A DNA stretch of 64,000 nt from the NCBI GenBank assembly GCA_023247915.1, contig JAHFFN010000003.1, forward strand, positions 4,081-68,080, in the 5' to 3' direction. This stretch comes from Candidatus Omnitrophota bacterium (GTDB lineage: Bacteria; Omnitrophota; Gorgyraeia; 2-02-FULL-51-18). Shown here piece after piece: positions 9,585 through 62,122 of the stretch. Positions within the stretch are counted from its first letter, which is position 1. Every line of letters begins with the position of its first letter. The notes under the pieces were generated by a model. It was not told where the DNA came from, did no database searches, and saw only the letters and a list, made by a program, of their open reading frames with translations. A program made the position numbers and the translations under genes.

Positions 9585-10748
9585 ATGAAAATTGCCGAAA
9601 GAATGTCACTGGTTTCTCCTTCCGCCACACTGAAACTCACTTCCAAGGCCAAGGAAATGAAGGCCAAAGGATTGCCGGTCATCAGTTTCGGTGCCGGAGA
9701 GCCTGATTTTGACACTCCGGAAGTAGTGAAGGAAGAAGCGATCCGCTGTCTCAAAGCGGGCTTTACCAAATACACGCCGACTTCGGGGATTCCCGAGCTT
9801 CGCGAAGCGGTTTGCAAGAAATTTTCCGAAGACCAGGGGCTGGCCTACAAGCCGGAAAATGTGGTCATCTCCTGTGGTGCCAAACATTCGCTTTACAATT
9901 TGATTCAAGTTCTCTGTGATCCAGGCGATGAAGTGTTGATCCCGACGCCCTACTGGGTGAGCTATCCGGAAATGGTGTATCTAGCCGGTGGAAAACCGGT
10001 GATGATTCCGACGATGCAAAGCGAAGGTTTCCGTCTGACGGCGGAGCGGCTCAAAGCGGCCATCACCCCCAAATCAAAAATTCTTATTTTGAACAGCCCT
10101 TCCAATCCCACCGGTGGAATTTTAGAAGAAAAAGATCTTAAGGCGATCGCCGAAGTGGTGCTCAAAACCAATTTGATTTTAATCAGTGATGAAATTTACG
10201 AGAACTATCTCTACAAAAATTTAAAGCATGTTTCGATCGCGTCTCTGGCGGAAGAGCTTAAAAAACGCACCTTCATCGTGAATGGCATGTCCAAGAGTTA
10301 TTCCATGACCGGGCTTCGCATCGGGTATTTGGCGGGCGACGCGGAAGTCGTTAAAAAAATAGGAATTTTACAGGATCATTCGACATCCAATCCGACCTCC
10401 ATTAGCCAAAAAATGGCGGTGGCGGCATTGGCGCTCCCCAAAACTTATCGCAGCCAGGTACTGGCTATTTTTGACAAGCGCCGGAAACAGATGCTGGATC
10501 TTTTGTTACGAGCCAAAGGGTTTAAGGCGTTTGAACCCGAAGGCGCTTTTTACGTTTTTTGTGATATTCAGGGGACGGGCATGGGTTCCGAAGCGCTTTG
10601 TGAGGAGCTTTTGGAGAAGGAAAATGTCGCGGTCATTCCTGGTAAAAGCTTCGGATCGGATCGACACATCCGGTTCAGCTTCGCGTCGAGCGAAAAAGAT
10701 ATTCAAGAGGGTGTTGAGCGAATTATTGAATGGGCGAGGAAAAAATAA
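9585..10748 (+). CDS. class I PLP-dependent aminotransferase (aspartate aminotransferase-like)
   Basis: The PLP-lysine context is SKSYSMTGLRIGY and there is an NPTG motif. I moved the start to the ATG at 9585 because the track start at 9531 lies inside the terminator. Confidence 0.85.
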   Translation: MKIAERMSLVSPSATLKLTSKAKEMKAKGLPVISFGAGEPDFDTPEVVKEEAIRCLKAGFTKYTPTSGIPELREAVCKKFSEDQGLAYKPENVVISCGAKHSLYNLIQVLCDPGDEVLIPTPYWVSYPEMVYLAGGKPVMIPTMQSEGFRLTAERLKAAITPKSKILILNSPSNPTGGILEEKDLKAIAEVVLKTNLILISDEIYENYLYKNLKHVSIASLAEELKKRTFIVNGMSKSYSMTGLRIGYLAGDAEVVKKIGILQDHSTSNPTSISQKMAVAALALPKTYRSQVLAIFDKRRKQMLDLLLRAKGFKAFEPEGAFYVFCDIQGTGMGSEALCEELLEKENVAVIPGKSFGSDRHIRFSFASSEKDIQEGVERIIEWARKK

Positions 10749-14475: not shown

Positions 14476-14504
14476 TTGACAAACGCTTCATTAGACTTTA
14501 TTCT
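14476..14504 (+). promoter_or_regulatory. putative promoter TTGACA-N17-TATTCT
   Basis: I read the hexamers directly. It lies upstream of the riboswitch leader. Confidence 0.4.
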
Positions 14505-14540
14505 AGCCACGTTCGACCGAGTGTAATTTAATGACAATTT

Positions 14541-14721
14541 AAGAAATGGTTGCCCCTAACCGGGCAACAAGAGGGAAGGCCGTTTAAATCGGCCGCGGTC
14601 CCGCCGCTGTAAGCTCTCCCATTTTGGGAACCTCGCACGCAAAGCATTTGTCACTGTTTCGAAGGATTGAAACGGGAAGACAGCTAGAGAGGGGAGCAAG
14701 CCAGAAGACCTGCCATTTCTT
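14541..14721 (+). promoter_or_regulatory. cobalamin (B12) riboswitch aptamer
   Basis: Conserved core strings are present (agagggaagg, aaatcggccgcggtcccgccgctgtaagc) plus a B12 box (agccagaagacctgcc). A closing P1 helix forms between aagaaatggt and gccatttctt. It lies upstream of a TonB-dependent receptor. Confidence 0.85.
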
Positions 14722-14753
14722 ATGAAACGCTTCTTTCCGAGGCAGAAAGAATT

Positions 14754-47259: not shown

Positions 47260-49676
47260 ATCCTTTTGCATTTTCAGGCCTACTTATAGGAATTTCTTCA
47301 ACGGCGATGGGTGTGTGGGTATTAATGAAAAACTCATCAAGCCCCGTTAATAGACTGTGGGCTATTTTCTGTGTCTCTGTAGCTTTTTGGGGTTTTGGTG
47401 GGTGCGCATTCGGACTTGCCAAAGATGCTAGCTCAGCGCTTCTTTTTTTGAGACTTACCTATGTAGGCGTAATTTTTATACCGGTTCTTTTTTACCATTT
47501 TGTGGTCGTCTTTCTTGAGCTACATCGCCGCAAAAGTCTTGTCGTAGCTTATTTAATAAGCATCATTTTTTTAATGGCTGACGCAACTCCTCTGATGCTC
47601 GGCAATATGACCTGGATGTTTGGACAATTTTATTTTTTATGCCCACCCGGTGTGTTGTACCCATATTTCGTTTTATTTTTTGTGTTTATGACATCCGCAA
47701 GCTTGATTAATTTATGGTATTTTATGAAAAAAATTGAAAATGAACTTCGACGAACTCAGATCAAATGGTTTCTTATGGCAACGGCAATTGGATTTATAGG
47801 GGGTTCAAGCTGCTTCCTGCCTGTTTTTGGAATCAAAATTTACCCTTATGGAAATTTTACAGTTGCCTTATACCCAATAATTATGAGTTACGCCATTATC
47901 AAGCATCAATTGTTAGATATAAAAGTTGTTATCAGAAAAACAATTTTTTATTCTTTGGCGGCATTTCTAACCTCTATCATTTACGTATTCGCAATAGTTG
48001 CTACACATAAAATAATGACAGGTGAGTGGGCCTATCGGTTAGATTTTTTAAATGGTTTAAAAAATTTTCCAAGCCTTTTTACGCTAACCAGCCTCCTATG
48101 CGGACTTTTTTCTTTTGGCTTAGCTATATTTGCAGGCATCACGGGAAAATCTAAAGCTCAAAAATTATTTGCTGCCTTTAATTCAGCGGTAGCTTTATGG
48201 GGATTTGGCAATTTTTTAGCAGGAATTTCCAAGACTCCAGAGACTGCTTTACTATCTTGGCGTGTTGCATATTTTGGTGGGTTTTTTATCAGCACTTTTT
48301 TCTACCACCTAGTCTTAGATTTTTTTGAAATAAAAAATAAAAATATTTTATGGTTCGCCTATCTGCATTCGATTATTTTTTCAGCGTTGATGGCGATTCA
48401 TCCAATCTATTTTTTGAGCAAAATTCGCATGGCTTTCGGAGTGCCATACAATATTGTTACTCCGTGGATGGCCGTCGCCATTTGGATATTTTTAATTTTG
48501 GTTGGACTGAGCTATCGAGAGCTATTGCTTTATCTACAAGCTCCAAAAAATGAAAACAAGACACAAGCAAAATACTTTATTTTTGGTTTTTCGTTTGGAT
48601 TTTTTGGAGGCATGACGACTCTATTGCCTCCATTTGGTGTGGATATTATTTATCCCATTGGAAACTTGGGTGTCGCCATCTATGTCGTAATTCTTCTATA
48701 TGCAATTTTTAGACATCAAATCTTAGATATTCGTATCGTGATACAAAGAACGGCTACGTATACCGTTCTAATTCTTCTGATCTCCATAGCCTACATTTTA
48801 ATAGTATTTGCTGTGCATCGATTTATTCTAGTTGAAAAAATGGTTCATGCGAATTTATTTAGCAACGTTGTTTTGATTCTTTTAATAGCTCTATTCTTAA
48901 AACCCTTGGAAGCATTTTTACGCCGGTACGTCGATAAGAAATTTTTTAAAGGAACTATTCAGGAGATATCGGCACAAAAGGATAAGCTGGAGAGTGAATT
49001 GGAGCGGAGGGAGCGTCTTAAAAGCGTAGGAATTTTGGCTGCTGGTATGGCACATGAGATCAAAAATCCGATCACATCTATCAAGACGTTCACTGAATAT
49101 TTACCGACAAAATATGACGATCCAGAGTTTCGTGAGAAATTCATTCGGATTGTTAGTGATGAGACAGAGAGAATTTCTGGCATTGTCAAGGATCTGCTTG
49201 AATTTTCAAAGCCGTCGGAGCCCAATAAACAATCTTGTGGTCTTAATCAGATTTTATCGGATGTTACAGATCTGCTAGGTGGGGGTATCTTCAAAAAAGG
49301 CATTGAGCTTCAGATGAGCTTTGTCTCGAATCTTCCAAGAGTTTATGTTGACCCATCCCAAGCCAAGCAAGTGTTTCTAAATATCCTTATGAATGCCATG
49401 GACGCGATGACTGGTGAGCGACGCGTTTTACGGATTGAGACAGGCGTGGCTGGTAAGCATGTTTTTGTTGCCGTTGAGGACACAGGCTGTGGCATGTCTG
49501 GAGAAACCAGCAAACATCTTTTCGACCCCTTCTTCACGAACAAAGCAACCGGAACCGGACTTGGTATGGCAATCACTCATTCCCTCATTGAGAAAAACGG
49601 CGGCACGATCCATGTCAGCAGTGACATTGGCAAGGGTAGCCGTTTTGTCGTGCAATTCCCTGTATTCCAAGCTTAA
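47256..49676 (+). CDS. sensor histidine kinase with two tandem multi-TM (7TM-type) input modules
   Basis: ATGA overlap with the previous kinase gene. H-box GMAHEIKNPI, N-box NILMNAMDAM, G-boxes DTGCGM and GTGLGMA. Confidence 0.85.
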   Translation: MNPFAFSGLLIGISSTAMGVWVLMKNSSSPVNRLWAIFCVSVAFWGFGGCAFGLAKDASSALLFLRLTYVGVIFIPVLFYHFVVVFLELHRRKSLVVAYLISIIFLMADATPLMLGNMTWMFGQFYFLCPPGVLYPYFVLFFVFMTSASLINLWYFMKKIENELRRTQIKWFLMATAIGFIGGSSCFLPVFGIKIYPYGNFTVALYPIIMSYAIIKHQLLDIKVVIRKTIFYSLAAFLTSIIYVFAIVATHKIMTGEWAYRLDFLNGLKNFPSLFTLTSLLCGLFSFGLAIFAGITGKSKAQKLFAAFNSAVALWGFGNFLAGISKTPETALLSWRVAYFGGFFISTFFYHLVLDFFEIKNKNILWFAYLHSIIFSALMAIHPIYFLSKIRMAFGVPYNIVTPWMAVAIWIFLILVGLSYRELLLYLQAPKNENKTQAKYFIFGFSFGFFGGMTTLLPPFGVDIIYPIGNLGVAIYVVILLYAIFRHQILDIRIVIQRTATYTVLILLISIAYILIVFAVHRFILVEKMVHANLFSNVVLILLIALFLKPLEAFLRRYVDKKFFKGTIQEISAQKDKLESELERRERLKSVGILAAGMAHEIKNPITSIKTFTEYLPTKYDDPEFREKFIRIVSDETERISGIVKDLLEFSKPSEPNKQSCGLNQILSDVTDLLGGGIFKKGIELQMSFVSNLPRVYVDPSQAKQVFLNILMNAMDAMTGERRVLRIETGVAGKHVFVAVEDTGCGMSGETSKHLFDPFFTNKATGTGLGMAITHSLIEKNGGTIHVSSDIGKGSRFVVQFPVFQA

Positions 49677-49811
49677 AAGCCACCAACCATGCCTCAAAAG
49701 CACAACTTGTGCATTTTTAACAGCTAGTCGGTTAAAAAGCCCAATATCTTGAATAAATTTGTTATATTTAATGATTTTAATAAGTTTTTGATAAAACTTG
49801 ATAAAAAACCA

Positions 49812-49840
49812 TTGACAGAAGATAAGCCAAGATATACAAT
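49812..49840 (+). promoter_or_regulatory. putative sigma70-type promoter TTGACA-N17-TACAAT
   Basis: A near-consensus hexamer pair read directly, about 90 nt upstream of the HTH gene. Confidence 0.55.
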
Positions 49841-49931
49841 GTAATTCCTTTAGCTAGTTTAGCGTTGAGATTGGTTGCAAAAGATGGATTTAAGGAAGTT
49901 TGGGTAAGTATAGATTGGGAGAGATAAGGCC

Positions 49932-50147
49932 TTGGAAGAGCAGGATACAGTTTTCACCGTACAAGAATTAGCTGAATACCTAAGAATGAGACCATTGACA
50001 ATTTATAAACATGCCTCGGCGGGAAAGTTGCCTGGATTTAAGGTTGGATCACATTGGCGTTTCAAGCGGCAAACCATTGATGAGTGGATAAAAAGTCAGG
50101 AGAGAATTGGAACAAAACAGAAAACAGTAATAAGAGGCGAAGGATGA
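49932..50147 (+). CDS. excisionase/MerR-type HTH DNA-binding protein (71 aa, TTG start)
   Basis: FTVQELAEYLRMRPLTIYKHASAGKLPGFKVGSHWRFKRQTIDEWI matches the HTH_17 / excisionase-family pattern. GGGAGAG lies 8 nt upstream. Confidence 0.65.
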   Translation: MEEQDTVFTVQELAEYLRMRPLTIYKHASAGKLPGFKVGSHWRFKRQTIDEWIKSQERIGTKQKTVIRGEG

Positions 50148-50162
50148 GTTTTATGATCCAAA

Positions 50163-51002
50163 TTGGATATTGCTATTAAACTTTACATGAAGTCTTTATT
50201 GAATAATTTAGATAAATTATTATACGAGCGCCTGATTAAGGCTCTTATGTTTTCAAGTCGGCTTGGAAGAAAAAGTACGCTTGGATATGCTGATTCTGGA
50301 ATTAATTTTGATCATATATACCAAAACAAGGCAAAAGGGTATAACAAATTTGGAGTTATTATTGATAGAATTTTATTAAGCCTGCCGGCTTGTAAAGCAA
50401 CCAGAGAGAGGTTTATTACTATAAAAAATATCTTGGAAGACGAAGTTCGGCGCAATATTTCCAAGAACAGAAAAACACGAATAGTTGATCTGGCATCTGG
50501 ACCTGCCAGATATCTTGTTCAATTTATTCCAGAAAAATCAAATCAAATTGAAAGCCTGTGCTTAGACTTAGATAGCCGCGCCTTAAATTTTGGGAAAAAA
50601 ATTTCAGGGGATTCTAGGCCTATTCTATACAGAAAGTGGAATGCTTTAAGGCTTGGCAAGCACCTGAAAAATTTTAGTGTAAAGAGGGAATGGAAGCCGA
50701 ATGTAATTATGGCATCTGGTTTTTATGAGTATCAGCCTGATGATGTGGTTCAAGCCCATTTTTCTAAGACAAAGGAATATTTGGAACATGATGGTTTATT
50801 TTTGGGTGTTTTACAGTTTAAGAATCCAAATAGGAAATTGATAGAAAAAGTTGGTATTCAGAAAAGTGGAAAACGTTGGGTTCTTTTTTATAGATCCCCT
50901 GAGACACTCCATCATTGGATGGTAAAAGCAGGTTATTCTGACATTAGAGTTTTTTCTGATAAATGGAAGCATTATATTTTTTGTTTGGGAAGAAAACCTT
51001 AA
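50163..51002 (+). CDS. class I SAM-dependent methyltransferase-like protein (start uncertain: TTG 50163 or ATG 50187)
   Basis: The motif I-like string is RIVDLASGPARYL, followed by an acidic loop (CLDLD) and a downstream Rossmann-like pattern. Confidence 0.6.
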   Translation: MDIAIKLYMKSLLNNLDKLLYERLIKALMFSSRLGRKSTLGYADSGINFDHIYQNKAKGYNKFGVIIDRILLSLPACKATRERFITIKNILEDEVRRNISKNRKTRIVDLASGPARYLVQFIPEKSNQIESLCLDLDSRALNFGKKISGDSRPILYRKWNALRLGKHLKNFSVKREWKPNVIMASGFYEYQPDDVVQAHFSKTKEYLEHDGLFLGVLQFKNPNRKLIEKVGIQKSGKRWVLFYRSPETLHHWMVKAGYSDIRVFSDKWKHYIFCLGRKP

Positions 51003-51048
51003 GGATTTTATTTATAGTATAAAAGGGAAATGGATTTAATAATTCATT

Positions 51049-52311
51049 ATGAGCAAGAAGAGGCGTGTTGTAGTTACAGGAATGGGTATAGTAGCCCCGA
51101 ATGGCGTGGGTCGAGCAGACTTTACGAGGGCCATTTTTTCCGGAAAATCTGGGTTATCGTGGTTTGCATCACCAAAAGAAGAAAGACCGCGGATCCCTAG
51201 AGTGGTTGGGAGAGTGGAATCATTCGACCCAGCTAATTTTTTACCTTCTGCGGTTATTCGAAAGACAGATAGATTTGTTCACTTGGGCTTGGTTGCGACA
51301 AAACTAGCCCTGGAAGATGCTAAGATACAAATAAACAGTCATTATTTAGAAAATGCATCGATAATTTTAGGTTCGGGTCAGGGTGGGCTTATTTTTCACG
51401 AGCAGACGATAAAAAACTATATCGAGTCAAATGGAACAAAGAAACCTTCGGCCAGTTCTGTTCCAAGGATTACCTCAAATGCTGTAACGGCATACATTGC
51501 CATGGAATATCAAATCAAAGGTTTAAACCAAGTGATTTCAACTGCCTGCTCATCCGGAGTCCAGGCCATTGGCCAAGCATTTAGAAGTATCCAATTTGGG
51601 GTAAGTGACTTGATATTAACCGGTGGGGTAGAGGCGCCTATTGGTCCCGTTATGCTAGATATGTACGGTTCAATGATGGTACTGGGGAATCCAATTGGGG
51701 ACGATCCTTCTACTGCTTCTAGGCCATTTGACAAAACAAGAGACGGATTTGTTTTAAGTGAAGGCGCGGCCATTCTTATTTTAGAAGATCGGGAAAAAGC
51801 TTTGCAACGAGAAGCGCCTATCTATGCAGAGATAATAGGTTTTGGTTCAAATTGTGGAGCCTATCATATGGTTACACCAAATCCAAATGGTGATGACGCG
51901 GCGCTTGCAATGTTGGCGGCGATTAAAGATGCAGACATAGATTTAAAGAGTATCGATTATATCAGTGCGCATGGAACCGCCACAAAGCAAAATGATTTAG
52001 CTGAGACCAATGCGATTAAAAACCTTTTTGGCGATAAAGCAAAAACTATTCCAATTAGTGGATTGAAATCGATGATAGGGCATTCAATAGGCGCGGCCGG
52101 GGCGATTGAAGTGGTAGCTAGCTGCATAGCTATTTGTGAAGAGTTGCTTCCACCAACTATTAATTTAAATAATCCTGATTCTGGATGTGATTTAGATTAT
52201 GTAGCCAATATAGCAAGAAAGAAAACCATACGAACTGTTCTAAAAAATTCTTTTGGGTTTGGTTCAAATAACGCAACTTTAATTTTAAGGGATGCGCGAT
52301 ATGAAAAATAA
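51049..52311 (+). CDS. beta-ketoacyl-ACP synthase (KAS I/II type, Cys-His-His)
   Basis: VVVTGMGIVAPNG, active-site Cys in STACSSG, and His residues in SAHGTAT and IGHSIGAAG. Confidence 0.9.
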   Translation: MSKKRRVVVTGMGIVAPNGVGRADFTRAIFSGKSGLSWFASPKEERPRIPRVVGRVESFDPANFLPSAVIRKTDRFVHLGLVATKLALEDAKIQINSHYLENASIILGSGQGGLIFHEQTIKNYIESNGTKKPSASSVPRITSNAVTAYIAMEYQIKGLNQVISTACSSGVQAIGQAFRSIQFGVSDLILTGGVEAPIGPVMLDMYGSMMVLGNPIGDDPSTASRPFDKTRDGFVLSEGAAILILEDREKALQREAPIYAEIIGFGSNCGAYHMVTPNPNGDDAALAMLAAIKDADIDLKSIDYISAHGTATKQNDLAETNAIKNLFGDKAKTIPISGLKSMIGHSIGAAGAIEVVASCIAICEELLPPTINLNNPDSGCDLDYVANIARKKTIRTVLKNSFGFGSNNATLILRDARYEK

Positions 52312-52591
52312 TCAGCAGATTAGTCGTGATGAAGTCTTCGATGGTGTTCTGATTGTCTTGTCTAGCATACTGGATGGCAAGGAAGCTAAAATTGTTCCAA
52401 AGAATAACATAACCTGGGATACCGATATATATGATGATTTGGGAATTGATTCTTTAGAAAGTTTAGATTTTCTTTCCGGGCTAGAAGAGAGGTTTAAGGT
52501 GAATCCGGATCAATACGAAGCCAATGATAAGAGAAAAGTATCAGAAATTGTGGACTATATCTTAAAACTAGCTAATGAAAAACCTGCATAG
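52301..52591 (+). CDS. acyl carrier protein
   Basis: The phosphopantetheine site is LGIDSLESLDF. The ATG at 52301 has AAGGGA 8 nt upstream and overlaps the KAS end by 11 nt. Confidence 0.8.
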   Translation: MKNNQQISRDEVFDGVLIVLSSILDGKEAKIVPKNNITWDTDIYDDLGIDSLESLDFLSGLEERFKVNPDQYEANDKRKVSEIVDYILKLANEKPA

Positions 52592-52612
52592 ACTTCTCGG
52601 GGGACATAGAAT

Positions 52613-53416
52613 TTGTTAAATAACATGAATAATAAATTCAGGGCAATACAGGTTGAAGAGCTGGAGGGGGGTGCTTTGTGGCGCCTTCAAATTAATAATC
52701 CACCAGTCAACTTGTTAACTATTAAAATTATTGATGAGATTGCTGGGTGCATAGATTTGTTCGGTCAAAGCAGGCAGGCTAGAGTACTGGTATTTACGAG
52801 TGGGCTAGAAAAATTTTTTATAGCAGGAGCTGACCCAGAAGAAATAAACTCTATCTCTTCTCCGGAAGATGGGTTCGTAACAGCTAAAAGAGGCCAAGAT
52901 CTTTGTAGCAAGATAGCGGCATTAGAGAAACCGGTAATTGCTGCTATTGACGGCGCCTGCATTGGCGGGGGGAATGAAATCGCAATAGCGTGCCATATGC
53001 GCATTGCTTCCGACAAAGCTGTTTTTCAACAACCAGAAATACATTTAGGTATTATTCCAGCTTTTGGGGGAACTCAGAGGCTGGGTCGGTTAATTGGCGA
53101 ATCTAGGGCAAAAAAAATGATTTTGACGGGTGAAAAAATTAGTGCAAAGGATGCGCTACTATTTGGTTTAATTGATCAATTAGTCAGCGAGAGAAGCGCT
53201 TTGGATGAGTCTCTTAGAATTGCCAGAGTAATGTTATCAAAGAGTCCCACTGCAATCAAATTGGCTTTTAAAGCTTTGAATAAGGGGGCAGCACTTTCAT
53301 TGAGCGATGGATTGGCTATTGAATTAGAGTGTTTTAGAGAAGTATGCAAAAACAGTAACATGAAAGAGGCTTTAAATGCTTTCAAGGAAAGGCGCAGGCC
53401 AATTTTTGAACCATGA
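52613..53416 (+). CDS. enoyl-CoA hydratase/isomerase (crotonase) family protein
   Basis: FIAGADPEEI, the oxyanion/Glu context ACIGGGNEIAIACH, and the second Glu in QPEIHLGIIPAFGGTQRL. Confidence 0.85.
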   Translation: MLNNMNNKFRAIQVEELEGGALWRLQINNPPVNLLTIKIIDEIAGCIDLFGQSRQARVLVFTSGLEKFFIAGADPEEINSISSPEDGFVTAKRGQDLCSKIAALEKPVIAAIDGACIGGGNEIAIACHMRIASDKAVFQQPEIHLGIIPAFGGTQRLGRLIGESRAKKMILTGEKISAKDALLFGLIDQLVSERSALDESLRIARVMLSKSPTAIKLAFKALNKGAALSLSDGLAIELECFREVCKNSNMKEALNAFKERRRPIFEP

Positions 53417-54108
53417 TAAATCGCACTAGAAAAATACAGGGTCTTGTATGCTTTGGAGATAGTATCTTCGCTGGGACAGGGGCTTCCGATCGTCAAATTG
53501 GAAGTGCAAAATTAATAAAAAATATTTTGACAATTCCTGTGTCCTTGCAAGGACGAAACAGAGATACAAGCGAGATGGCTATTCGCAGACTTGAAAAAGA
53601 CATCCTTTCTCTCGGGAAAGAGTACACACAAGTGATCGTGTTGCTAGGTAATAATGATTGCTGGTTAGATACTAATGGTGAGCCACGCATAACCTTGGAA
53701 ACTTTTGAAGCAAATATGGTGCGTATCATTAATTTAATTCAAGCAAACGGCAGAGAAGCTATAATTTGCAATCTTCAACCAATTCACGACAAAAATTTTT
53801 TAATTACATTTCCAGAGTATCAAGATTTTTTTAAAAAGAGTAAATTCAAACCTACAGAATTGCAAGAGGTTTATAGTAATAAAATAGAAAACATTTGCAA
53901 AAAATTTAATTTAGTTATGATAGATATAAGAGAAGAGTTTCTTGATTCAGCAGGAACTTTAATGGCGGATGACGGAATCCATCCCAATGACTTAGGACAT
54001 AAAAAAATTGCCAAAAAGATAATATCTACCTTGGGCAAATTGGATATTTCGCTGTTGGGAAGTGGTTTAAAAATTGAGTCCTCTGATTGGATTGGTAGGC
54101 ACGCATGA
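53413..54108 (+). CDS. SGNH/GDSL hydrolase (TesA-like esterase/thioesterase fold)
   Basis: Block I is VCFGDSIFAG, block III is LLGNNDC, and block V is DGIHPNDLGH. There is a 4-nt overlap with the crotonase gene. Confidence 0.8.
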   Translation: MINRTRKIQGLVCFGDSIFAGTGASDRQIGSAKLIKNILTIPVSLQGRNRDTSEMAIRRLEKDILSLGKEYTQVIVLLGNNDCWLDTNGEPRITLETFEANMVRIINLIQANGREAIICNLQPIHDKNFLITFPEYQDFFKKSKFKPTELQEVYSNKIENICKKFNLVMIDIREEFLDSAGTLMADDGIHPNDLGHKKIAKKIISTLGKLDISLLGSGLKIESSDWIGRHA

Positions 54109-56234
54109 CTTTATACATCGTTACAACAGGCTTAACGGCTGTGTTATTTTTTTTAGTAGGCTTTTTTGTGTATCTTCAAAATCCAAAATCAGAGCTCTAC
54201 TTAAGGTGTTTTGTTTTTAGTAATTCAGTCGCTCTGTGGGCGCTTGGGTATTTTATTACATTAATACAGGTGTTTAATTATGATTACACGTTACTCATTA
54301 GTAGGGCTTCTCACGCATGCGGAGCGATTATACCGATCGCATATTATCATTTTGTTATGGCGTTATTAAAAAAGCCAGGAAATCCAAAATTTTTAAAATT
54401 AGGATATTTAATTTCCATAGCAATGTCTGTTATGTCATTCTCGCCTTGGGTAGTCAAAGCGTTATTGCCAAAAATGGATATTCAGCTTTATCCCGAATGG
54501 GGTGTTTTATACCCCCTTTATACAAGTCTATTCGTTGTCTATCCCGGCTATGCGCATTATCGAATGCTTCCTGAGATTAAAAGGCTCCATGGGACAGAAA
54601 GGACGCGTTTAATATATTTCTTTGTTGCTTTGGCGCTAGCCTTTGCAGGCGGCATATCGCTGTTTTTTTTAATATTCAATGTTCCGTTCCCCCCTTATTT
54701 TAGTGTTTTTATAATTTTGTATCCTCCAATGATGGCGTACACAATACTTGTGCATAAATTCATGGATATAGAAGTTATTGTAAGGCGTACAGCAGTTTTC
54801 GCAGGCCTTTTTGCTTTCGTTTACGGCGTATTTACAACTGTAACAATTTTAGGCCAAGAATTTTTCATGAATTTTCTAGGCTGGAACCAATGGACAGCAA
54901 TGATACCCACTGTATTCATTATTACTTTCTCTCTTCGCCCCCTAGAAATATTTTTGACAAATACCACTGAGAAATTTTTATTTCAGAAAAAATATGACTA
55001 TCGCGAACTTCTTAGAACTTTTACTAATGAGACTCTCACCGTTTTAGATTTGCAGAAGCTGATGGATCAAACCGTAGCGGGATTGATCAAGATCATGAAG
55101 CTCGAAGCTGCTGCAGTCTTGCTATTTGATAAGGATGAAAAAAAATATAAATTTATGGCGGGATCTGGGATAAAGGATAAGCAGATCGTTTTTGATGACA
55201 GCGACACGGTTATTGCTTATCTAAAGAAAACCCATCAGCCAATCGCGAAGGATAAGGCAGCGGATAAGATTGAGGGAAATAGCCTTCTTAAAGATAATTT
55301 TGCTAAGTTGAATGCGAGACTTTGCTTGCCGATCACACTCCACGAAGAACTGATAGGGGTTCTGTGTCTAGGCATGAAAAAATCTGGAGAGGACTATACC
55401 CAGGAAGATATAGACATCTTAACCACGCTTGCTCGCACAGAAGCGATCGCTATTTCTAACGCCCAGCTTTTCGATGAGCTTTCAAAGACTCAGGCAGAAG
55501 CTGCTCAGCGAGAAAAGATGGCGGTGATTGGGACGCTGGCAGCAGGAATTAATCACGAGATTTGCAATCCTCTTGGGATTGTCCGTGGGCAATGCGAAAT
55601 GTTTCTTCTGAACTTTAGAGATGGGTTCTACAAATCAAAATCTCAAGATGAGGTTTTGGCGATCGCATCGGATGTGATGGGAAAGGTAATCAAAGAAACA
55701 GATCGGGCAACGGCAATCACCAAAAAGCTTTCAAGTTTTGCCAAGCCATCCAAACGCTCGGAGTTTGAAGAGGTGCATGTAGATAAAGAAGTCGATGAAG
55801 TCTTGGGGTTAGTTGGGCATGATTTGCAACTTAATAATATTGCTGTTAGTAAAAATTTTACAGAAAATTTCCCTGCCATATTGGCTGATAGGAAACAAGT
55901 TCAGGAGGTTCTGTTTAATATTATTCGAAATGCTGCTCAAGCTATGGATAAAAAGGCGGGCACGATACAAGTTTCGGGCGCTGTTCAAACTGAAATGGCC
56001 GTTATTCGTATCGCTGACAACGGTTCGGGGATCCCTAAGGATAAGCTCGAACAGGTTTTTCATCCTTTCTACACGACCAAAGAACCTGGGAAGGGCACGG
56101 GTCTCGGACTTTTTATTGTTAAGCAGGTGGTTGAGCGCAATAAGGGCTCTATCCAGGTTGAAAGCGAGCAGGGCGTAGGGACAACATTTACTCTTAAGTT
56201 TCCCTTAACTGAAAAAATGGCAGCGGTGGCCTAA
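54105..56234 (+). CDS. sensor histidine kinase: one multi-TM (7TM-type) module, then GAF, HisKA and HATPase domains
   Basis: ATGA overlap with the SGNH gene. There is a GAF-like region (LMDQTVAGLIKIMKLEAAAVLLFD...LCLPITLHEELIGVLCLG). H-box AAGINHEICNPL; G-boxes DNGSGI and GTGLGLF. Confidence 0.85.
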   Translation: MTLYIVTTGLTAVLFFLVGFFVYLQNPKSELYLRCFVFSNSVALWALGYFITLIQVFNYDYTLLISRASHACGAIIPIAYYHFVMALLKKPGNPKFLKLGYLISIAMSVMSFSPWVVKALLPKMDIQLYPEWGVLYPLYTSLFVVYPGYAHYRMLPEIKRLHGTERTRLIYFFVALALAFAGGISLFFLIFNVPFPPYFSVFIILYPPMMAYTILVHKFMDIEVIVRRTAVFAGLFAFVYGVFTTVTILGQEFFMNFLGWNQWTAMIPTVFIITFSLRPLEIFLTNTTEKFLFQKKYDYRELLRTFTNETLTVLDLQKLMDQTVAGLIKIMKLEAAAVLLFDKDEKKYKFMAGSGIKDKQIVFDDSDTVIAYLKKTHQPIAKDKAADKIEGNSLLKDNFAKLNARLCLPITLHEELIGVLCLGMKKSGEDYTQEDIDILTTLARTEAIAISNAQLFDELSKTQAEAAQREKMAVIGTLAAGINHEICNPLGIVRGQCEMFLLNFRDGFYKSKSQDEVLAIASDVMGKVIKETDRATAITKKLSSFAKPSKRSEFEEVHVDKEVDEVLGLVGHDLQLNNIAVSKNFTENFPAILADRKQVQEVLFNIIRNAAQAMDKKAGTIQVSGAVQTEMAVIRIADNGSGIPKDKLEQVFHPFYTTKEPGKGTGLGLFIVKQVVERNKGSIQVESEQGVGTTFTLKFPLTEKMAAVA

Positions 56235-56240
56235 CGCTTT

Positions 56241-56630
56241 ATGCCAAAACTTTTGAGTATTGACGATGAGGTGGAATTTACTAATTTGATGCAAAACTAC
56301 TTTGGGCCGAGAGGGTATGAGGTATTTGTCGCTAATCAGGGAGATTCGGGTCTGGTTATTGCTAAACGCGAAAAGCCGGATGTTTGTTTAATTGATCTTA
56401 AAATGCCCGGGCTTCACGGGGATGATGTTTTGAGAGAGATTCTGTTGGATCAACCGGACGCCAAATGTATTATGATTACAGCATCTGAAGGCGAAGGAAA
56501 AACCCGAGCGAAGCTTATGAAAATGGGAGCCTTCACGACATTTGATAAACCGGTAACATCGCTCAAAGATTTGGAAGAAAAGGTGAGGCAAGCCTTGGCT
56601 AGTCGTATGAACGGAGAAAAAAATGGGTAA
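56241..56630 (+). CDS. single-domain response regulator (receiver only)
   Basis: The acceptor Asp is in DVCLIDLKMPG, with Thr in MITASEG and Lys in FDKPV. Confidence 0.85.
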   Translation: MPKLLSIDDEVEFTNLMQNYFGPRGYEVFVANQGDSGLVIAKREKPDVCLIDLKMPGLHGDDVLREILLDQPDAKCIMITASEGEGKTRAKLMKMGAFTTFDKPVTSLKDLEEKVRQALASRMNGEKNG

Positions 56631-57009
56631 AGCTCCTAAGCTTCTTGTGGTGGATAATGAGCTAGACATTTGTAATTTTGTGAAATCTTTTTTTGAAATG
56701 CGTGGATTTCAAGTCACGACGGCACTGAACGGTGATGATGCGATGGCGAAGCTTGCATTAGTGCAGCCGGATATAGTGATCCTGGATGTGGTGATGCGTC
56801 GCGAGACTGAAGGGATTGAGTATCTTCCAAAAATCAAGCAGGCGATGCCGAATGTCCGTGTGATCATGGTTACTGGTGTTGACGACAAAGATACCGTTGA
56901 GAAAGCCAAGCAGTTGGGCGCGGACGACTATATTACGAAGCCTCTGGTGTTGGAGTATCTGGAGGGAACGGTGCTTGGGAAGATAAAGAGCTTGGAAAAT
57001 GTTAGATGA
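56623..57009 (+). CDS. single-domain response regulator (receiver only)
   Basis: The acceptor Asp is in DIVILDVVM, with Thr in MVTGVDD and Lys in ITKPL. There is an 8-nt overlap with the preceding gene. Confidence 0.85.
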   Translation: MGKAPKLLVVDNELDICNFVKSFFEMRGFQVTTALNGDDAMAKLALVQPDIVILDVVMRRETEGIEYLPKIKQAMPNVRVIMVTGVDDKDTVEKAKQLGADDYITKPLVLEYLEGTVLGKIKSLENVR

Positions 57010-57030
57010 AGATCCTTCGCTTCGCTCAGG

Positions 57031-58260
57031 ATGACTGTGTATAGCCGCTTAGACTACCAGGAAGCCCTTTTAAACGCCTCCAAAGGCATGATCCGGGTTA
57101 AAGACCCGATCACCTTGCTTAAAATTATCACACGTTTCATTGATCGCCAGATCGGTGTTACGCATGTAGGAATTCTCCTTTTTGATCGTCTTAAAGATTC
57201 CTATGTTCTAATCGACAGTAAAGGCGAGGGCGGCGTTAAGATCCCCGTTGGCTATATCCGCGTCACTAAAAATAACCCGCTTGTCACTTTCTTTGTCGCT
57301 TCTAATAATAGCGCATTTGATCGGAAAGAAGCACTGGTATACAGCGAGCTTAAGCACCTTCAGAACTTTGAAATATTTGTGAATAAAAAAGAAGGCCGAG
57401 CGATCCACTACGAAGATATTCAAAAGCAGATGGATTATTTTCGTGCCTCGGTTTGCGTGCCAAGTTTTTATAAGCGCGAGCTGATAGGTGTTCTGATCCT
57501 TGGTGAAAAGCTATCAGGAGAAAAATATTTCGAAGAAGAAATTAATCTTTTTGTGACATTGGCCAATGACGTGGCCATGGCCGTCAAAAATGCGGAACTT
57601 ATTAAAGATCTAAAAATCGCTTATGACAAAGAGCACAATCTTTTTATCCAGACCTCGGTAGCTCTTGCGACGGCTATCGACGCTAGAGATCGTTATACGC
57701 ATGGCCATTCAGAGCGCGTATCGCATTACAGCCTTGTCATTGCCAAAGAGTTGATTGATGAGGGAAAAATTGAATACGATCGTGAATTTATGGAGACAGT
57801 ACAGTTATCCGCTTTGCTTCATGACATTGGAAAGATAGGTATTCGGGACAATATTTTAAACAAACCAGATAAGCTCACCACGGAAGAGTTTGAAATCATG
57901 AAAACCCATGTGGCGATCGGCGGAAGCATCTTAAAGCCGGTGGATGGGCTGACACATCTGGCAGACGGTATCTTGTATCATCATGAGAGATTTGATGGGA
58001 AGGGCTACCCGCATGGCTTGAAAGGCAAGGACATCCCAATTATCGGACGTATCGTGAACGCAGCCGACTCATACGATACGATCGTAACGGCTCGTGCTTA
58101 TAAGGCTTCTTCCGCGTCAGAGGATGCGTTTAAGGAGCTTATCCGGTGCAAGGGCAGCCAGTTTGACCCTGAAATCGTCGATGCATTCTATAATGCCTAT
58201 AAAGCCGGAAGACTAACTAAGAGGGAATACACTAGCTACGATTTTTCAAAATTACACTAA
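57031..58260 (+). CDS. GAF domain / HD-GYP domain protein (predicted c-di-GMP phosphodiesterase)
   Basis: HGHSERV, LLHDIGKIG and HHERFDGKGYPHGL (the HD-GYP signature). The N-terminal region is GAF-like. Confidence 0.85.
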   Translation: MTVYSRLDYQEALLNASKGMIRVKDPITLLKIITRFIDRQIGVTHVGILLFDRLKDSYVLIDSKGEGGVKIPVGYIRVTKNNPLVTFFVASNNSAFDRKEALVYSELKHLQNFEIFVNKKEGRAIHYEDIQKQMDYFRASVCVPSFYKRELIGVLILGEKLSGEKYFEEEINLFVTLANDVAMAVKNAELIKDLKIAYDKEHNLFIQTSVALATAIDARDRYTHGHSERVSHYSLVIAKELIDEGKIEYDREFMETVQLSALLHDIGKIGIRDNILNKPDKLTTEEFEIMKTHVAIGGSILKPVDGLTHLADGILYHHERFDGKGYPHGLKGKDIPIIGRIVNAADSYDTIVTARAYKASSASEDAFKELIRCKGSQFDPEIVDAFYNAYKAGRLTKREYTSYDFSKLH

Positions 58261-59869
58261 TTTCAGTTCCTGCTCCCAGTTTACTTTTTACTTCCATTTT
58301 CCCGCCATGCTTGCTGATAATGCTGTGAACGATTGATAAGCCAAGGCCAGTTCCTTCTTCCTTTGTAGTGAAGAAGGGATCAAAGAGGTGGGAGATGTTT
58401 TCTTTTGGAATGCCCACGCCGGTATCCGAAATAATAATCATCGAATCTGAAATACTCACAGTTAAGGTGCCGCCGTCCGGCATGGCTTGTATGCTATTTA
58501 GGAAGAGATTCAAAAAAGCTTGGCGGAGTTGATTTTTATCAACCAGCAGAGTTATGTCTCTTGAATATTTTTTAACAAGCTCGATTTTATTTTTTAGTAA
58601 ATTATTACCAAGTAAGCTCAGCGTATCATCCAAAATTGAAGCCATTGAACAAGGTTTAAGCTCAAGCTCCTGAGGTTTGGAAAATTCTAGAAGTTGCTTC
58701 ACAATATTATTAACCCGATCGACTTCATCCACGACAATTTTCTTGAATTTCTCTCTAAATCCAGGATCATCATATTTTTCAGGGAGGTATTCCGCAAAGG
58801 TTTTGATAGAGGTGAGTGGGTTTTTAATCTCATGCGCCATCCCAGCCGCCAGCGTTGCCACGGTTTTCATTTGTTCGGTTTTCTGTACTTCTTGAATCAG
58901 ACGATCATTTTCTTTTTGCAATTCCTCAGGAGTCTTTTTGAAAATAAGCAGGTCAACGAAACTTTGAATTTTTCTTTCCAGGGGCTTAAAGAGAAGCGTT
59001 ATGACCGTTAATATTAATAAAATAACAGGAGCAGAATGAGCTTTCGCTAATCCCCCAACAAAAGTGGCGGTCAAATAGACGATAGTAAAGTATAACGTGG
59101 CAATGATTGAAACTAATATCGAATAGGCCAAACTTTTTCGAATGACGATGGAAATTCCCATTACGCCATGCCGAAATATTCCGTACATAGTAAAAGTGAC
59201 AAAGAGCACTGCAAATATACAGCCCACCGGAAAAAAATCAATTCCCCAGTTATGAAGAAAATCAGAGCTTCCGCAGGTGACAAATATCATTGCTAAAAAT
59301 AAATATTTTATCTCGTGGTATCTGTTAGTTTTTCCATGCTCATTTCGGACGACAGTTAGCGCAAGATGCAGTAAATGAATTGCATAAAACGCTGTACCTA
59401 GCACAAACGTAGTGTGGATAGCGTGAAACACGCCGCCTTTTGGATAGAATCCCCAAGAATAATTGTATGTGCCAGATATAAAGCTATTACTAGTCCACAC
59501 AAGAACTAAAAAGACAAAAGTGAATGAATAAGCGATTATTAGGTCACGTTTCAGGGGTTTTGACTTTAGCTCATTCTTAACAAAGGATGTCGCAAAATGC
59601 AGGGCAAGCGTTGGCATAAATACAACGCCGGTATAAACCCATCTGCCCAAGACAAGAGATGTATGATCAGAGAATAATTTGGACGATAAAAGAGATATCG
59701 AGAAAAGCCAGATGCAAATTGCTATACAAAAATAAAAGTAAAGTTGATTTGTGAGGTTTTTGTGATTTTTAGTTAAGACGAATATGCCTTGCGAAAGACA
59801 CACAACTCCACAAAAGAACGTTAAGACCGAATAGAATGGTAGATGTGAAGGCGTAATTGAGAGCGTCAT
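58232..59869 (-). CDS. sensor histidine kinase with one multi-TM (7TM-type) input module
   Basis: H-box GMAHEIKNPLTSIKTFAEYLPEKYDD, N-box NLFLNSIQAM, G-boxes DTGVGI and GTGLGLS. Confidence 0.85.
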   Translation of the reverse strand: MTLSITPSHLPFYSVLTFFCGVVCLSQGIFVLTKNHKNLTNQLYFYFCIAICIWLFSISLLSSKLFSDHTSLVLGRWVYTGVVFMPTLALHFATSFVKNELKSKPLKRDLIIAYSFTFVFLVLVWTSNSFISGTYNYSWGFYPKGGVFHAIHTTFVLGTAFYAIHLLHLALTVVRNEHGKTNRYHEIKYLFLAMIFVTCGSSDFLHNWGIDFFPVGCIFAVLFVTFTMYGIFRHGVMGISIVIRKSLAYSILVSIIATLYFTIVYLTATFVGGLAKAHSAPVILLILTVITLLFKPLERKIQSFVDLLIFKKTPEELQKENDRLIQEVQKTEQMKTVATLAAGMAHEIKNPLTSIKTFAEYLPEKYDDPGFREKFKKIVVDEVDRVNNIVKQLLEFSKPQELELKPCSMASILDDTLSLLGNNLLKNKIELVKKYSRDITLLVDKNQLRQAFLNLFLNSIQAMPDGGTLTVSISDSMIIISDTGVGIPKENISHLFDPFFTTKEEGTGLGLSIVHSIISKHGGKMEVKSKLGAGTEISVILKNRS

Positions 59870-61464
59870 AATGTGGTTTTGAAAGCCAAAGTAAATATTG
59901 CGCCTTTTTCTGGGGCGTTGGAAGCGGTTATTTTCCCGCCATGCTCCTCTATAATTCCATGAACAATGGATAGGCCGAGTCCAGTACCCCCATCCTTAGT
60001 TGTAAAAAAAGGTTCAAAGATATATTTCAGGTTTTCTCTGGGAATGCCATTTCCGGTGTCTGCGATCGAAATTTCTAGAAGGTTAGAATTATTTTTTGTT
60101 GTAATGGAAAGTGCGCCACCATTAGGCATAGCCTGAATAGAATTTAAAAAAAGATTTAGAAGGATTTGTCGGAGTTGTTTTTTATCGCCGCTTAACAGCG
60201 AATTTGAAGCAATATAACTTTTTTCAAGATGAATGTCATACTTGACAAGCTCACCATTTAAAAAATTTAAAGTTTCATCGATAAGTTTATGTAGCTCAAC
60301 TTTCTCAAGCTGAAGAGGGGAGGGCTTAGAAAATTCAAGTAATTGGCGAACCGTACCGTCAATACGATCAACCTCGGCACCAACGATGCTGATAAATTGT
60401 TTTATAAACTCGGGATCATGATGCTTTTTAGTCAAATGTTCGGTGAAAGTTTTGATCGCAGTTAACGGATTTTTAATCTCATGTGCCATTCCTGCAGCCA
60501 AAGTTGATACAGCCCTCATCTGATCTTTTCCTCGAATCTCAGCGGTCAATTTTTGATTTTCTTTTTTTAACATTTCAGCTGTTTTTTTAAATATAAGAAG
60601 ATCAACCAGTTCTTGAATTTTTCTTTCAATGGGTTTGAAGAAGAGAGCAATGACAGTAAATAGCAGTATAGTAAATGGCAATGATTTGTAGCCCATATAG
60701 TTTTGGAATAGAGTACCAACCGAATAAACTAGAAAAAAATAAAATGTAGTAATAACCCCGATAAGGAATGAATAAATTAAACCCTGCCGAACAAGGATGT
60801 TGATATCCATTAACCGATGCTTCACAATCGCATACGAAATAATCGCTACGTAAATCCAAACAAAGTGAAGCGTTGTAGGATTGATAGGAATCTTATAAAC
60901 AAGAAGAAATGCAGCATCTCCCGTTATAAAGCCAATAACCGTGGCTACAATGATGTACTTAATCTGATTTTTTTTATCGGCGGATAGATGCTTTAAGTTT
61001 TTGAATAGTAAGTATTCCGAGTAAATAGAATAAAAAATAAAATGAAATAAGTAATAATGAAATAAAGGCCCCGGGTCAGCATAATATTTGAATATAGAAA
61101 TAGATCGCACGGTTTCAAAGTATGGTGTAAATCCTAGAATAGTAATCAAAATAATATTGGCGTAGCCCAATTTGAGAAGAAGATTATTTTTTATTTCTTG
61201 GTATGTAATGGCTAGAGAGAAATGGGTGAAGAAAACAGGGATGAAGCTAGCGGTGACATTGCAAAGCCTGCTAAAAAGTAAGCCGTCATCGTAATTGGTT
61301 GCAAAAAATGAACGCCAAATAAAAAAGCTCCAGGCCGTAACTGATAAGGACATCAAAAACCAAGTTTGATTTATGATGTTTTTTGGATTTTTATAAAGAA
61401 CGAAGATACCAAGTGACAGCGCTGAAATAAACGTAAGGGGTAGGCTATAAAAATAGGGCTGCAT
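59866..61464 (-). CDS. sensor histidine kinase with one multi-TM (7TM-type) input module
   Basis: H-box GMAHEIKNPLTAIKTFTEHL, N-box NLFLNSIQAM, G-boxes DTGNGI and GTGLGLS. There is a 4-nt overlap with the downstream kinase gene. Confidence 0.85.
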   Translation of the reverse strand: MQPYFYSLPLTFISALSLGIFVLYKNPKNIINQTWFLMSLSVTAWSFFIWRSFFATNYDDGLLFSRLCNVTASFIPVFFTHFSLAITYQEIKNNLLLKLGYANIILITILGFTPYFETVRSISIFKYYADPGPLFHYYLFHFIFYSIYSEYLLFKNLKHLSADKKNQIKYIIVATVIGFITGDAAFLLVYKIPINPTTLHFVWIYVAIISYAIVKHRLMDINILVRQGLIYSFLIGVITTFYFFLVYSVGTLFQNYMGYKSLPFTILLFTVIALFFKPIERKIQELVDLLIFKKTAEMLKKENQKLTAEIRGKDQMRAVSTLAAGMAHEIKNPLTAIKTFTEHLTKKHHDPEFIKQFISIVGAEVDRIDGTVRQLLEFSKPSPLQLEKVELHKLIDETLNFLNGELVKYDIHLEKSYIASNSLLSGDKKQLRQILLNLFLNSIQAMPNGGALSITTKNNSNLLEISIADTGNGIPRENLKYIFEPFFTTKDGGTGLGLSIVHGIIEEHGGKITASNAPEKGAIFTLAFKTTL

Positions 61465-61515: not shown

Positions 61516-61902
61516 TTACTTCTTGGCGGCTTCTTGGAGTGTCTGAGAGATGGAGCGGAGGACGTGTTTGGAGTCGAAAGGTTTCGGGATGTAATCGGCA
61601 GCACCGTTACGGAGGGCTTCTTGGGCGGTTTCGACGCTTTGGTAGCCGGTGACGATAATGACGGGGAGCTTGGGCTTCAGCGCTTTGACTTGTTTTAAAA
61701 TCTCCATTCCATGGAGTTTGGGCATCTTGATGTCGAGTAGCATTAAGTCCGGTGTGAAGGACTTTAAGAGCTCTAAAGCATCGAGGCCGTTTTTAGAAAA
61801 TTTGAGGGAGTAGTTGTCCTCGAGAATTAATTTGAAAGATTCGCGAATACCTTCTTCGTCGTCGCAAACAAGAATGGTAGGTTTGTGCGTTTCGGACGCC
61901 AT
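61516..61902 (-). CDS. single-domain response regulator (receiver only)
   Basis: The acceptor Asp is in DLMLLDIKMP, with Thr in IIVTGYQS and Lys in YIPKPF. AGGAGG lies upstream on the minus strand. Confidence 0.85.
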   Translation of the reverse strand: MASETHKPTILVCDDEEGIRESFKLILEDNYSLKFSKNGLDALELLKSFTPDLMLLDIKMPKLHGMEILKQVKALKPKLPVIIVTGYQSVETAQEALRNGAADYIPKPFDSKHVLRSISQTLQEAAKK

Positions 61903-62024
61903 GAGACCCTCCTAGGTTTAACGATAGTCTAGCCTATCATTGATGAATATTCAAATTTTTTAACGACCTCCCAGAGGCATTTATTCAGCATTGTTAAGCT
62001 TTACTTAATCCCGCTTAAATAAAT

Positions 62025-62077
62025 ATTGAATAAAAATCAAATTAAAATTTGACAAATAAACATTCAACGTGTACTCT
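62025..62077 (+). promoter_or_regulatory. putative promoter (TTGACA 62049-62054, N17, TACTCT) with the upstream near-palindrome TTGAATAAAAATCAA
   Basis: I read it directly. The string atttgacaaataaacatt is nearly identical to the one upstream of the giant gene. Confidence 0.4.
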
Positions 62078-62122
62078 TGAATTCATCACAGTTGTCGGGC
62101 ATATTTCGGAGTACTGAAATTT

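Follow-up and report, generated by a model that had tools for sequence, protein, structure and literature searches.

A TTGA-N7-TCAA dyad shared by giant RHS/YD, OMP and signalling promoters in an Omnitrophota contig, and its proposed link to an XRE-cupin regulator

A 15-bp dyad, TTGA-N7-TCAA (in its fuller form TTGAT-N5-ATCAA), is shared by the promoters of two giant RHS/YD genes, of a unit encoding an OMP and of a response regulator-histidine kinase operon in a 64,000-nucleotide stretch of DNA from a Candidatus Omnitrophota bacterium (the window, hereafter). The dyad lies over the -35 hexamer, a second copy is placed two helical turns upstream, and in related metagenomic loci the element is tightly linked to a gene for an XRE-cupin regulator. 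From sequence comparison, the dyad can with considerable confidence be taken as a conserved operator for a transcription factor. The more specific reading preferred here, to which a probability of about 0.62 is given and which draws both on sequence and on analogy with known repressors, is that the dyads would be operators of a dimeric XRE-cupin repressor that occludes the -35 hexamer from tandem sites two helical turns apart. Most likely, the motif marks a small, previously undescribed regulon.

Promoters and candidate operators

Four near-consensus promoters of the sigma-70 type, all with 17-nt spacers and each located 20-50 nt upstream of an SD sequence and an ATG, can be read from the sequence. 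These are sites A, B and C and the promoter of the operon for the response regulator and two histidine kinases (RR-HK-HK):

32884-32889, plus strand: site A, -35 TTGACA
32907-32912, plus strand: site A, -10 TATTTT (TTGACA-17-TATTTT, 10/12 consensus match)
42410-42415, plus strand: site C, -35 TTGAAT (17-nt spacer)
42433-42438, plus strand: site C, -10 TATACT (TTGAAT-17-TATACT)
62049-62054, plus strand: site B, -35 TTGACA (17-nt spacer)
62072-62077, plus strand: site B (YD2 promoter), -10 TACTCT, aligned with TAGACT of locus L067
61954-61949, minus strand: RR-HK-HK operon, -35 TTGAAT (TTGAAT-17-TAGACT)
61931-61926, minus strand: RR-HK-HK operon, -10 TAGACT

The candidate operators at these promoters are the following:

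32863-32877, no strand assigned: site A, upstream candidate operator (O2-type), ATGATTATTTTTCAA, one mismatch to TTGA-N7-TCAA
32884-32898, plus strand: site A, proximal candidate operator (O1-type), TTGACAAATAATCAT, overlapping -35 TTGACA
62026-62040, no strand assigned: site B, upstream candidate operator, TTGAATAAAAATCAA, exact TTGA-N7-TCAA
62049-62063, plus strand: site B, proximal candidate operator, TTGACAAATAAACAT, overlapping -35 TTGACA
42388-42402, no strand assigned: site C, upstream candidate operator, TTGATTATAAATCAA, perfect TTGAT-N5-ATCAA
42410-42424, plus strand: site C, proximal candidate operator, TTGAATAATAAGCAA, overlapping -35 TTGAAT
61940-61954, minus strand: RR-HK-HK operon, candidate operator (O3-type), TTGAATATTCATCAA, exact palindrome overlapping the -35

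At sites A, B and C the dyad is present twice, as a weaker copy formed by the -35 hexamer and the next 9 nt and as a stronger copy upstream, at about -43 to -57; the RR-HK-HK promoter bears a single copy over its -35. The proximal copies begin at the first position of the -35 hexamer in all four promoters, as they do in the regulator promoters of relatives, which is the core-promoter location of an XRE-cupin operator, and their right halves are degenerate (ACAT, GCAA). Centre to centre, the paired copies are separated by 21 bp (A), 23 bp (B) and 22 bp (C), that is, by two helical turns. The dyad symmetry of a site for an HTH dimer is seen in three exact copies, in the consensus obtained by Gibbs sampling (see below) and at site A, where the 32863-region copy and 32883-32898 make up a 16-nt inverted repeat, 94% complementary. 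Extra or divergent promoters using the upstream copies as their -35 were considered and rejected, there being no -10 at 16-18 nt on either strand.

Part of this anatomy had been described in a first-pass annotation of the window, and the three upstream sequences that it quoted are all present where it placed them. It had reported a TGA(A/T)TA...TCAA element centred 14-17 nt upstream of a -35 hexamer followed by AATAA; the centres fall at 14 nt (A), 16 nt (B) and 15 nt (C), and AATAA does follow the hexamer at the three sites, where the hexamer plus AATAA(N)CA is also the second, weaker copy of the palindrome. To its three target units, which are retained, a fourth candidate promoter has to be added, that of the RR-HK-HK operon on the minus strand (61926-61954). 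The identity of 19 of 20 nt given for the two YD-gene sites is in fact 17 of 18 (18 of 20 if extended), and the 18-mer ATTTGACAAATAAWCATT is found in the window only at A and B, with 0.04 occurrences expected.

Regarding frequency, the motif exceeds what random DNA would give. Exact TTGA-N7-TCAA occurs three times in the 64 kb (42388, 61940 and 62026), always in intergenic DNA and in two promoter regions, versus 0.02-0.05 occurrences expected from dinucleotide shuffles of intergenic DNA. The pattern was chosen post hoc from the same data, with some 2,500 dyad patterns to allow for by the author's estimate, and the significance of the in-window counts alone is borderline after this correction. 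For this reason, weight was placed on an independent PWM.

Genes downstream of the sites

The genes served by these promoters, and the terminator that bears on the extent of unit C, are:

32957-41458, plus strand: giant RHS/YD gene 1 (YD1), 2833 aa, Pfam RHS_repeat 1.5e-71
62123-64000, plus strand: giant YD gene 2 (YD2), ATG at 62123; extends beyond the window (another contig gives at least 2157 aa)
42462-42641, plus strand: unit C, 59-aa ORF, ATG at 42462
42687-43454, plus strand: unit C, 255-aa protein
43478-44083, plus strand: unit C, OMP beta-barrel, Pfam OMP_b-brl
44103-44139: terminator with a 16-bp stem, after the first OMP and before the second OMP and the kinases
61516-61902, minus strand: single-domain response regulator (RR), by Pfam and by synteny with L067-L073
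59866-61464 and 58232-59869, minus strand: HisKA_7TM histidine kinases, by Pfam and by synteny with L067-L073

The N-terminus of YD2 is similar to those of the divergent giant genes of relatives, and RHS_repeat is present in the orthologues. Unit C had been annotated as an OMP/kinase unit. The first OMP does belong to it, but the kinases (44692-49676) are probably outside, because the strong terminator at 44103-44139 intervenes; the third unit would thus comprise the 59-aa ORF, the 255-aa gene and the first OMP gene. It may also contain an internal promoter, as suggested by an extended -10 promoter, ACGTGGTAATATA, directly upstream of the 255-aa gene (42650-42686) and kept in the related locus L064 (2110-2142), together with a weak hairpin (42620-42637) at the end of the 59-aa ORF.

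YD1, a 260-aa gene, promoter C and the 59-aa ORF form a 9.8-kb segment between short direct repeats (32839-32881 and 42637-42661; CTTAATTTT...TTTTCAAAAAC, or CTTAATTTTYT … TTTTCAAAAAC). To judge from sequence comparison, this segment resembles an insertion into the spacer downstream of truA, since locus L064 (2090-2142) is without it and there the 255-aa gene homologue comes directly after truA.

Several other features of the window were recorded. The G+C content passes from about 48-51% (1-32 kb) to 35-43% (45000-61000), and the 45000-61000 region holds a gene cluster (kinase, fatty-acid-like genes for KAS, ACP, ECH and GDSL lipase, GAF-kinase, RR, RR, HD-GYP) that is syntenic with L067-L072. 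A promoter at 49812, the strongest consensus promoter of its region, is followed by a gene for a 71-aa HTH_17 (excisionase/MerR-like) protein (49932-50147) and by a Methyltransf_20 gene; the HTH_17 protein is the sole small DNA-binding protein among the scanned ORFs near the sites, with nothing evident to connect it to the motif. A cobalamin riboswitch (14530-14731; Rfam RF00174, 103.9 bits) is placed between a promoter at 14478 (TTGACA-17-TATTCT) and a TonB-dependent receptor gene (14754-16898).

Related loci and conserved footprints

The contig to which the window belongs, from an NCBI MAG and 69.7 kb in length, is also present in ENA metagenomes. When the kinase at 59866-61464 was used as query against GTDB representative genomes, only relatives of at most 37% identity were obtained, and no orthologous loci. 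The RR, on the other hand, has many homologues at 70-84% identity, one of them labelled Candidatus Omnitrophica (locus L071, a Candidatus Omnitrophica MAG). The related metagenomic loci probably belong to Omnitrophota, an assignment that is tentative because it is based on this one label. When an alignment of RR sequences was used as query against JGI metagenome contigs, 80 loci were returned, 58 of which had enough upstream sequence to be evaluated.

In the relatives, the gene order is a giant RHS gene, divergent from an operon whose first gene encodes an XRE(HTH_3)-cupin regulator, followed by the RR and two 7TM kinases. For example, locus L067 has a giant RHS gene of 2772 aa and, between it and the RR, a gene for a 184-aa HTH_3 + Cupin_2 regulator. 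A giant protein with RHS repeats is the divergent gene product in the near relatives and in some distant loci as well (L104, L113). In addition, a gene for a 23S_rRNA_IVP/bAvd-like four-helix-bundle protein (about 148 aa) has been observed between the regulator and the RR in some relatives, namely in L073 (718-1164), in L072 (20-466), on the contig P0020 and in metagenome loci numbering about 16.

Alignment of site B with L067 reveals a block, TGAwwAAAAATCAAATTA-N-TTGACAAnTAAACA...TGTA..CT, that has been kept within flanking intergenic DNA that is diverged and rich in indels. The upstream copy of site B reads aTGAwAAAAAATCAAATTA in both L067 and L071, at an equal distance from the -35. In L071 the giant-gene promoter is ATGAAAAAAAATCAAATTAGAC-TTGACAAATAAACAAT-...-TATAGT, and its TTGACAAATAAACAAT is identical to the proximal copy of site B in 15 of 16 positions. 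A similar picture is given by the regulator-operon promoters of four species, TTGAATATTCATCAA-N8-TAGACT in the window, TTGATTAATTCTCAA-N8-TACACT in L067, TTGATTTTTAATCAA-N8-TAGACT in L071 and TTGATTTTTTATCAT-N8-TAGACT in L073, in which TTGA and TCA(A) are constant, the interior is variable and the element starts at the first position of the -35.

Sites A and C are less widely shared. The N-terminus of YD1 has no homologues outside its own species, and site A is therefore without an orthologous footprint; its proximal copy is nevertheless identical in 14 of 15 positions to TTGACAAATAATCAA, the operator of the regulator gene in locus L149. Homologues of the 255-aa protein occur in three relatives (L064, L065 and L066), of which L064 and L066 do not have a promoter of the C type and only L065 bears the motif, at its OMP gene. 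There, the promoter (9254) has an exact copy of the dyad over the -35, providing a second example of an OMP target. Like site A, site C has no orthologous footprint, and both may be lineage-specific recruitments. Also in L065, TTGACAAATAAAC (9930-9942), 13 nt in length and identical to part of the proximal copy of site B, is located in the interval that separates an OMP gene from the homologue of the 255-aa protein. Translated starting at its TTG, this sequence would begin a plausible signal peptide (MTNKPLRANWFLAALFF…); an operator, a start codon context and coincidence are all conceivable.

These footprints bear on the idea that the sites are relics of duplication or mobility, such as a copied promoter cassette, or have arisen by chance in AT-rich DNA, and that they share no function. 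The 17 of 18 nt shared by A and B would agree with it, as would the absence of the repeat-flanked YD1 segment from L064, given that promoters may have moved together with cassettes, and the borderline in-window statistics. However, the DNA similarity between the two YD-gene sites ends within about 45 nt and the N-termini of the YD proteins are not homologous, on which grounds a recent duplication of the two genes was rejected. Furthermore, the variants TTGACAAATAATCAA and TTGACAAATAAACAAT recur in unrelated metagenomes, and both the orthologous footprints and the independent PWM point to function. Taken with the sites upstream of the regulator genes and their density, this evidence largely refutes the relic or chance explanation, which is considered very improbable.

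Motif discovery and a PWM from other loci

Nearly every regulator gene of the related loci is preceded by TTGA-N7-TCAA at the -35; the -10, TAnACT or TATACT, is separated from the -35 hexamer by a 17-nt spacer. Gibbs sampling with no prior pattern, applied to 46 non-redundant regions upstream of regulator genes, returned TTGA[CT]W6[T]CAAA as the dominant motif. In many of these loci the divergent promoter has a proximal copy of the TTGACA type and a TTGAT-N5-ATCAA copy 20-23 bp away, as in sites A, B and C, and the spacing between neighbouring sites shows a sharp peak at 20-23 bp.

A 16-nt PWM was then trained on 34 regulator-promoter sites taken only from other loci. Its scores in the window, every one of which is partly due to the -35-like TTGA, are:

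42388: upstream copy of site C, 17.3 bits, the best of the whole window
61939/61940: RR promoter, 15.1 bits
62026: upstream copy of site B, 15.1 bits
42410: proximal copy of site C, 13.9 bits
32884: proximal copy of site A, 12.9 bits
52027: match in a coding region, 12.8 bits
32862: upstream copy of site A, 12.2 bits
62049: proximal copy of site B, 10.7 bits

The first five of these are the top physical sites of the 64 kb, although the scores of site A (12-13 bits) are equalled by the coding-region match at 52027. At 12 bits or more, the window contains 10 strand-hits versus 1.2 in shuffles that preserve local composition. Because a PWM derived from other genomes ranks the sites of the window at the top, this is regarded as the decisive test that they are more than chance. 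In 49 non-redundant loci, sites of at least 13 bits have a density of 2.84/kb in the zone from -300 to -86 upstream of the regulator gene, a zone outside the training set, and of only 0.03/kb over the 264 kb examined elsewhere in those loci, i.e., about 90-fold lower than near the regulator; at the regulator promoter itself the motif reaches 8.2/kb. In two loci of 15-20 kb (L067 and L071), the sites of at least 13 bits are, with a single exception, inside the intergenic region between the regulator and the giant gene. The earlier proposal of one regulator or one promoter class for the three units is thus supported, at the level of sequence, by the footprints, by the regulator motif of the 46 loci and by the PWM from other loci.

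Another explanation would dispense with a dedicated regulator, the sites being strong sigma-70 promoters with A/T-rich UP elements whose likeness comes from shared promoter constraints. All the sites do have near-consensus -35 and -10 hexamers with 17-nt spacers, the upstream copies occupy the position of an UP element, and the upstream part of site A (ATTATTTTT..AAAA) is similar to the UP consensus. An UP element consists of A/T tracts and needs neither G/C nor a dyad, whereas here the G at position 3 and the C at position 13 are conserved in the TTGA/TCAA arms, the A/T interior is the variable part, and the dyad has been kept across species. Moreover, TCAA is kept inside the spacer, which is not read by sigma-70; the strong promoters at 49812 (TTGACA-17-TACAAT) and 14478 do not carry the motif, both giving 9.2 bits or less with the PWM; and there is an enrichment of about 90-fold beside one regulator gene. 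This explanation appears quite improbable.

The XRE-cupin regulator gene and its loss

The XRE-cupin gene is directly upstream of the RR gene in 54 of the 58 evaluable loci. It encodes a protein of about 185 aa with HTH_3 and Cupin_2 domains, whose nearest solved structure is 1y9q. Over 48 distinct regulators with overall identities of 34-100%, conservation of the recognition-helix region (QATLSRIENGKMTGT) reaches 90% or more, which, as judged from sequence, is consistent with an operator that stays constant throughout the regulator family.

No XRE-cupin gene was found by tblastn in the 64-kb window, where the site is therefore seen without the regulator that adjoins it in relatives. In the interval 61903-62122, the promoter and leader (…TAGACTATCGTTAAACCTAGGAGG…) that precede the regulator gene in relatives (compare L067, 8436-9211, and L071, 3675-4396) directly adjoin the RR gene, and it follows that the regulator gene has been deleted at this locus. 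In L071 a deletion of about 22 nt within the HTH shifts the reading frame of the regulator gene, and the operators are perfect. The situation in the window and in L071 may be due to recent losses of the regulator, to a copy or paralogue acting in trans or, alternatively, to a different binder. If the sites are regulated by an XRE-cupin protein, A and C would be distal targets.

A different binder means that the operator is real but is bound by another dimeric regulator, e.g. one of the CRP/FNR type or another HTH protein, the XRE-cupin protein being itself a target. The missing gene in the window and the disrupted one in L071, both with intact operators, are in agreement with this, as is the TF-less locus L105, which keeps the operator pair before its RR gene. 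The half-sites TTGAT and ATCAA are, in addition, those of the FNR box. Nevertheless, the motif accompanies the XRE-cupin gene in loci that range from 34 to 100% in identity and in which the recognition helix is conserved, and XRE regulators as a rule control their own genes by way of palindromes placed upstream (PMC12565409). Spacing also separates the classes, since all the strong copies have TGA-N7-TCA, one base more than the TGA-N6-TCA of CRP and FNR boxes, and assignment to that class was rejected on this basis. On balance, a different binder is thought unlikely, and an XRE-cupin regulator is preferred.

Other known boxes were tried and rejected. The Fur box (in its 7-1-7 form, TGATAAT-N-ATTATCA) needs TGAT-N7-ATCA, and TGAT-N5-ATCA is observed; the AATAATCATTA of site A partly resembles the Fur core, and B and C do not. 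The ARG box (TGAAT-N4-ATTCA) needs TGA-N8-TCA, against the TGA-N7-TCA found here. Direct repeats of the LytTR type were also weighed and dropped.

Proposed mechanism

XRE-cupin transcription factors have been described as locally acting inhibitors that form dimers and recognise palindromic sites within core promoters, an example being ErfA, which represses the exlBA toxin operon (PMC7901475), and autoregulation by way of an upstream palindrome is typical of XRE regulators (PMC12565409). From this known behaviour we infer, by analogy, the binding of the regulator, repression as the sign of control and the nature of the signal. The XRE-cupin regulator would bind each dyad as a dimer, and two dimers would cooperate on one face of the DNA, so that the strong upstream site helps to fill the weaker site over the -35. 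Occlusion of the -35 would exclude RNA polymerase and repress transcription, of the regulator's own operon too, until repression is lifted by a signal, which either the cupin domain would sense or the RR and kinases of the same operon would pass on.

A bolder extension of this scheme can be offered only as speculation. The XRE-cupin regulator, the single-domain RR and the two 7TM kinases might constitute a new kind of two-component output, in which the phosphorylated stand-alone receiver acts on an XRE-cupin repressor, in place of a DNA-binding receiver protein, and thereby opens the tandem TTGA-N7-TCAA operators and turns on the expression of giant RHS/YD surface proteins and of OMPs in Omnitrophota. 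With the repressor gene deleted in the lineage of the window, the regulon would there be constitutive or under the control of a paralogue acting in trans.

Significance

Giant genes are a well-known feature of Omnitrophota and of related uncultured bacteria. In the giant-gene literature searched, nothing was found on the control of their expression, nor was the motif or any regulator of these giant genes found in the literature searched; with the dyad, a cis-regulatory element is proposed for these giant RHS/YD genes for the first time. The operator, the candidate regulator and the signalling operon, a widely conserved regulator-RR-kinase arrangement revealed by this comparison, define a testable regulon of giant RHS/YD proteins, OMPs and sensor kinases, and the 16-nt PWM can be used on complete genomes to list co-regulated genes. 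More generally, comparative metagenomics alone can be enough to validate a motif first noticed by eye in a single window. The two-component output, if true, would be the first regulatory handle on the timing of these presumed predatory or host-contact giant proteins.

Comparison with known systems

The nearest parallels are the XRE-cupin repressors ErfA, PsdR and PauR of Pseudomonas, which have the same HTH_3 + Cupin_2 architecture as the regulator described here; PuuR of E. coli is another XRE-cupin local repressor. In these systems, palindromes are found in the core promoters of adjacent and often divergent genes, as here, where autoregulation is probable by analogy. The fold is also common to both, 1y9q having been the template used for ErfA, and just as ErfA controls a very large secreted toxin operon, giant RHS/YD genes are putative targets in the present case (PMC7901475). 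There are, however, several differences. The regulator here heads an operon with a single-domain RR and two 7TM kinases, its putative targets are giant RHS/YD proteins and OMPs instead of metabolic operons, its candidate operators form tandem pairs with a spacing of 20-23 bp, the probable lineage is Omnitrophota, and the regulator gene is missing from the window. A TTGA-N7-TCAA operator was not found in the XRE and XRE-cupin literature searched (PMC7901475, PMC12565409).

A second parallel is provided by OR1 and OR2 of phage lambda, the dyads for the XRE/Cro-type HTH proteins Cro and CI, which are likewise about two turns apart, with one of them over a -35, in a control region common to a divergent promoter pair. 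In contrast to lambda, there is no phage context here, cooperativity is a proposal, and a cupin sensor domain takes the place of the oligomerisation/cleavage domain of the CI type. The FNR box (TTGAT-N4-ATCAA) and, in its dyad symmetry, the CRP box (TGTGA-N6-TCACA) are also alike, the TTGAT and ATCAA half-sites being identical to those of the best copies (42388, L091 and L086). Unlike those boxes, the present element has an N5 spacer, is placed over the -35 or at about -50 and not at -41.5 or -61.5, and has no linked gene of the CRP/FNR family. Finally, the upstream copy shares with UP elements its A/T-richness and its position at about -43 to -57, and differs from them in having a G/C dyad and in that copies of the motif are found within the spacer as well, and ahead of promoters of either orientation. 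From these comparisons of sequence, the element is very probably an operator of the XRE-cupin repressor family.
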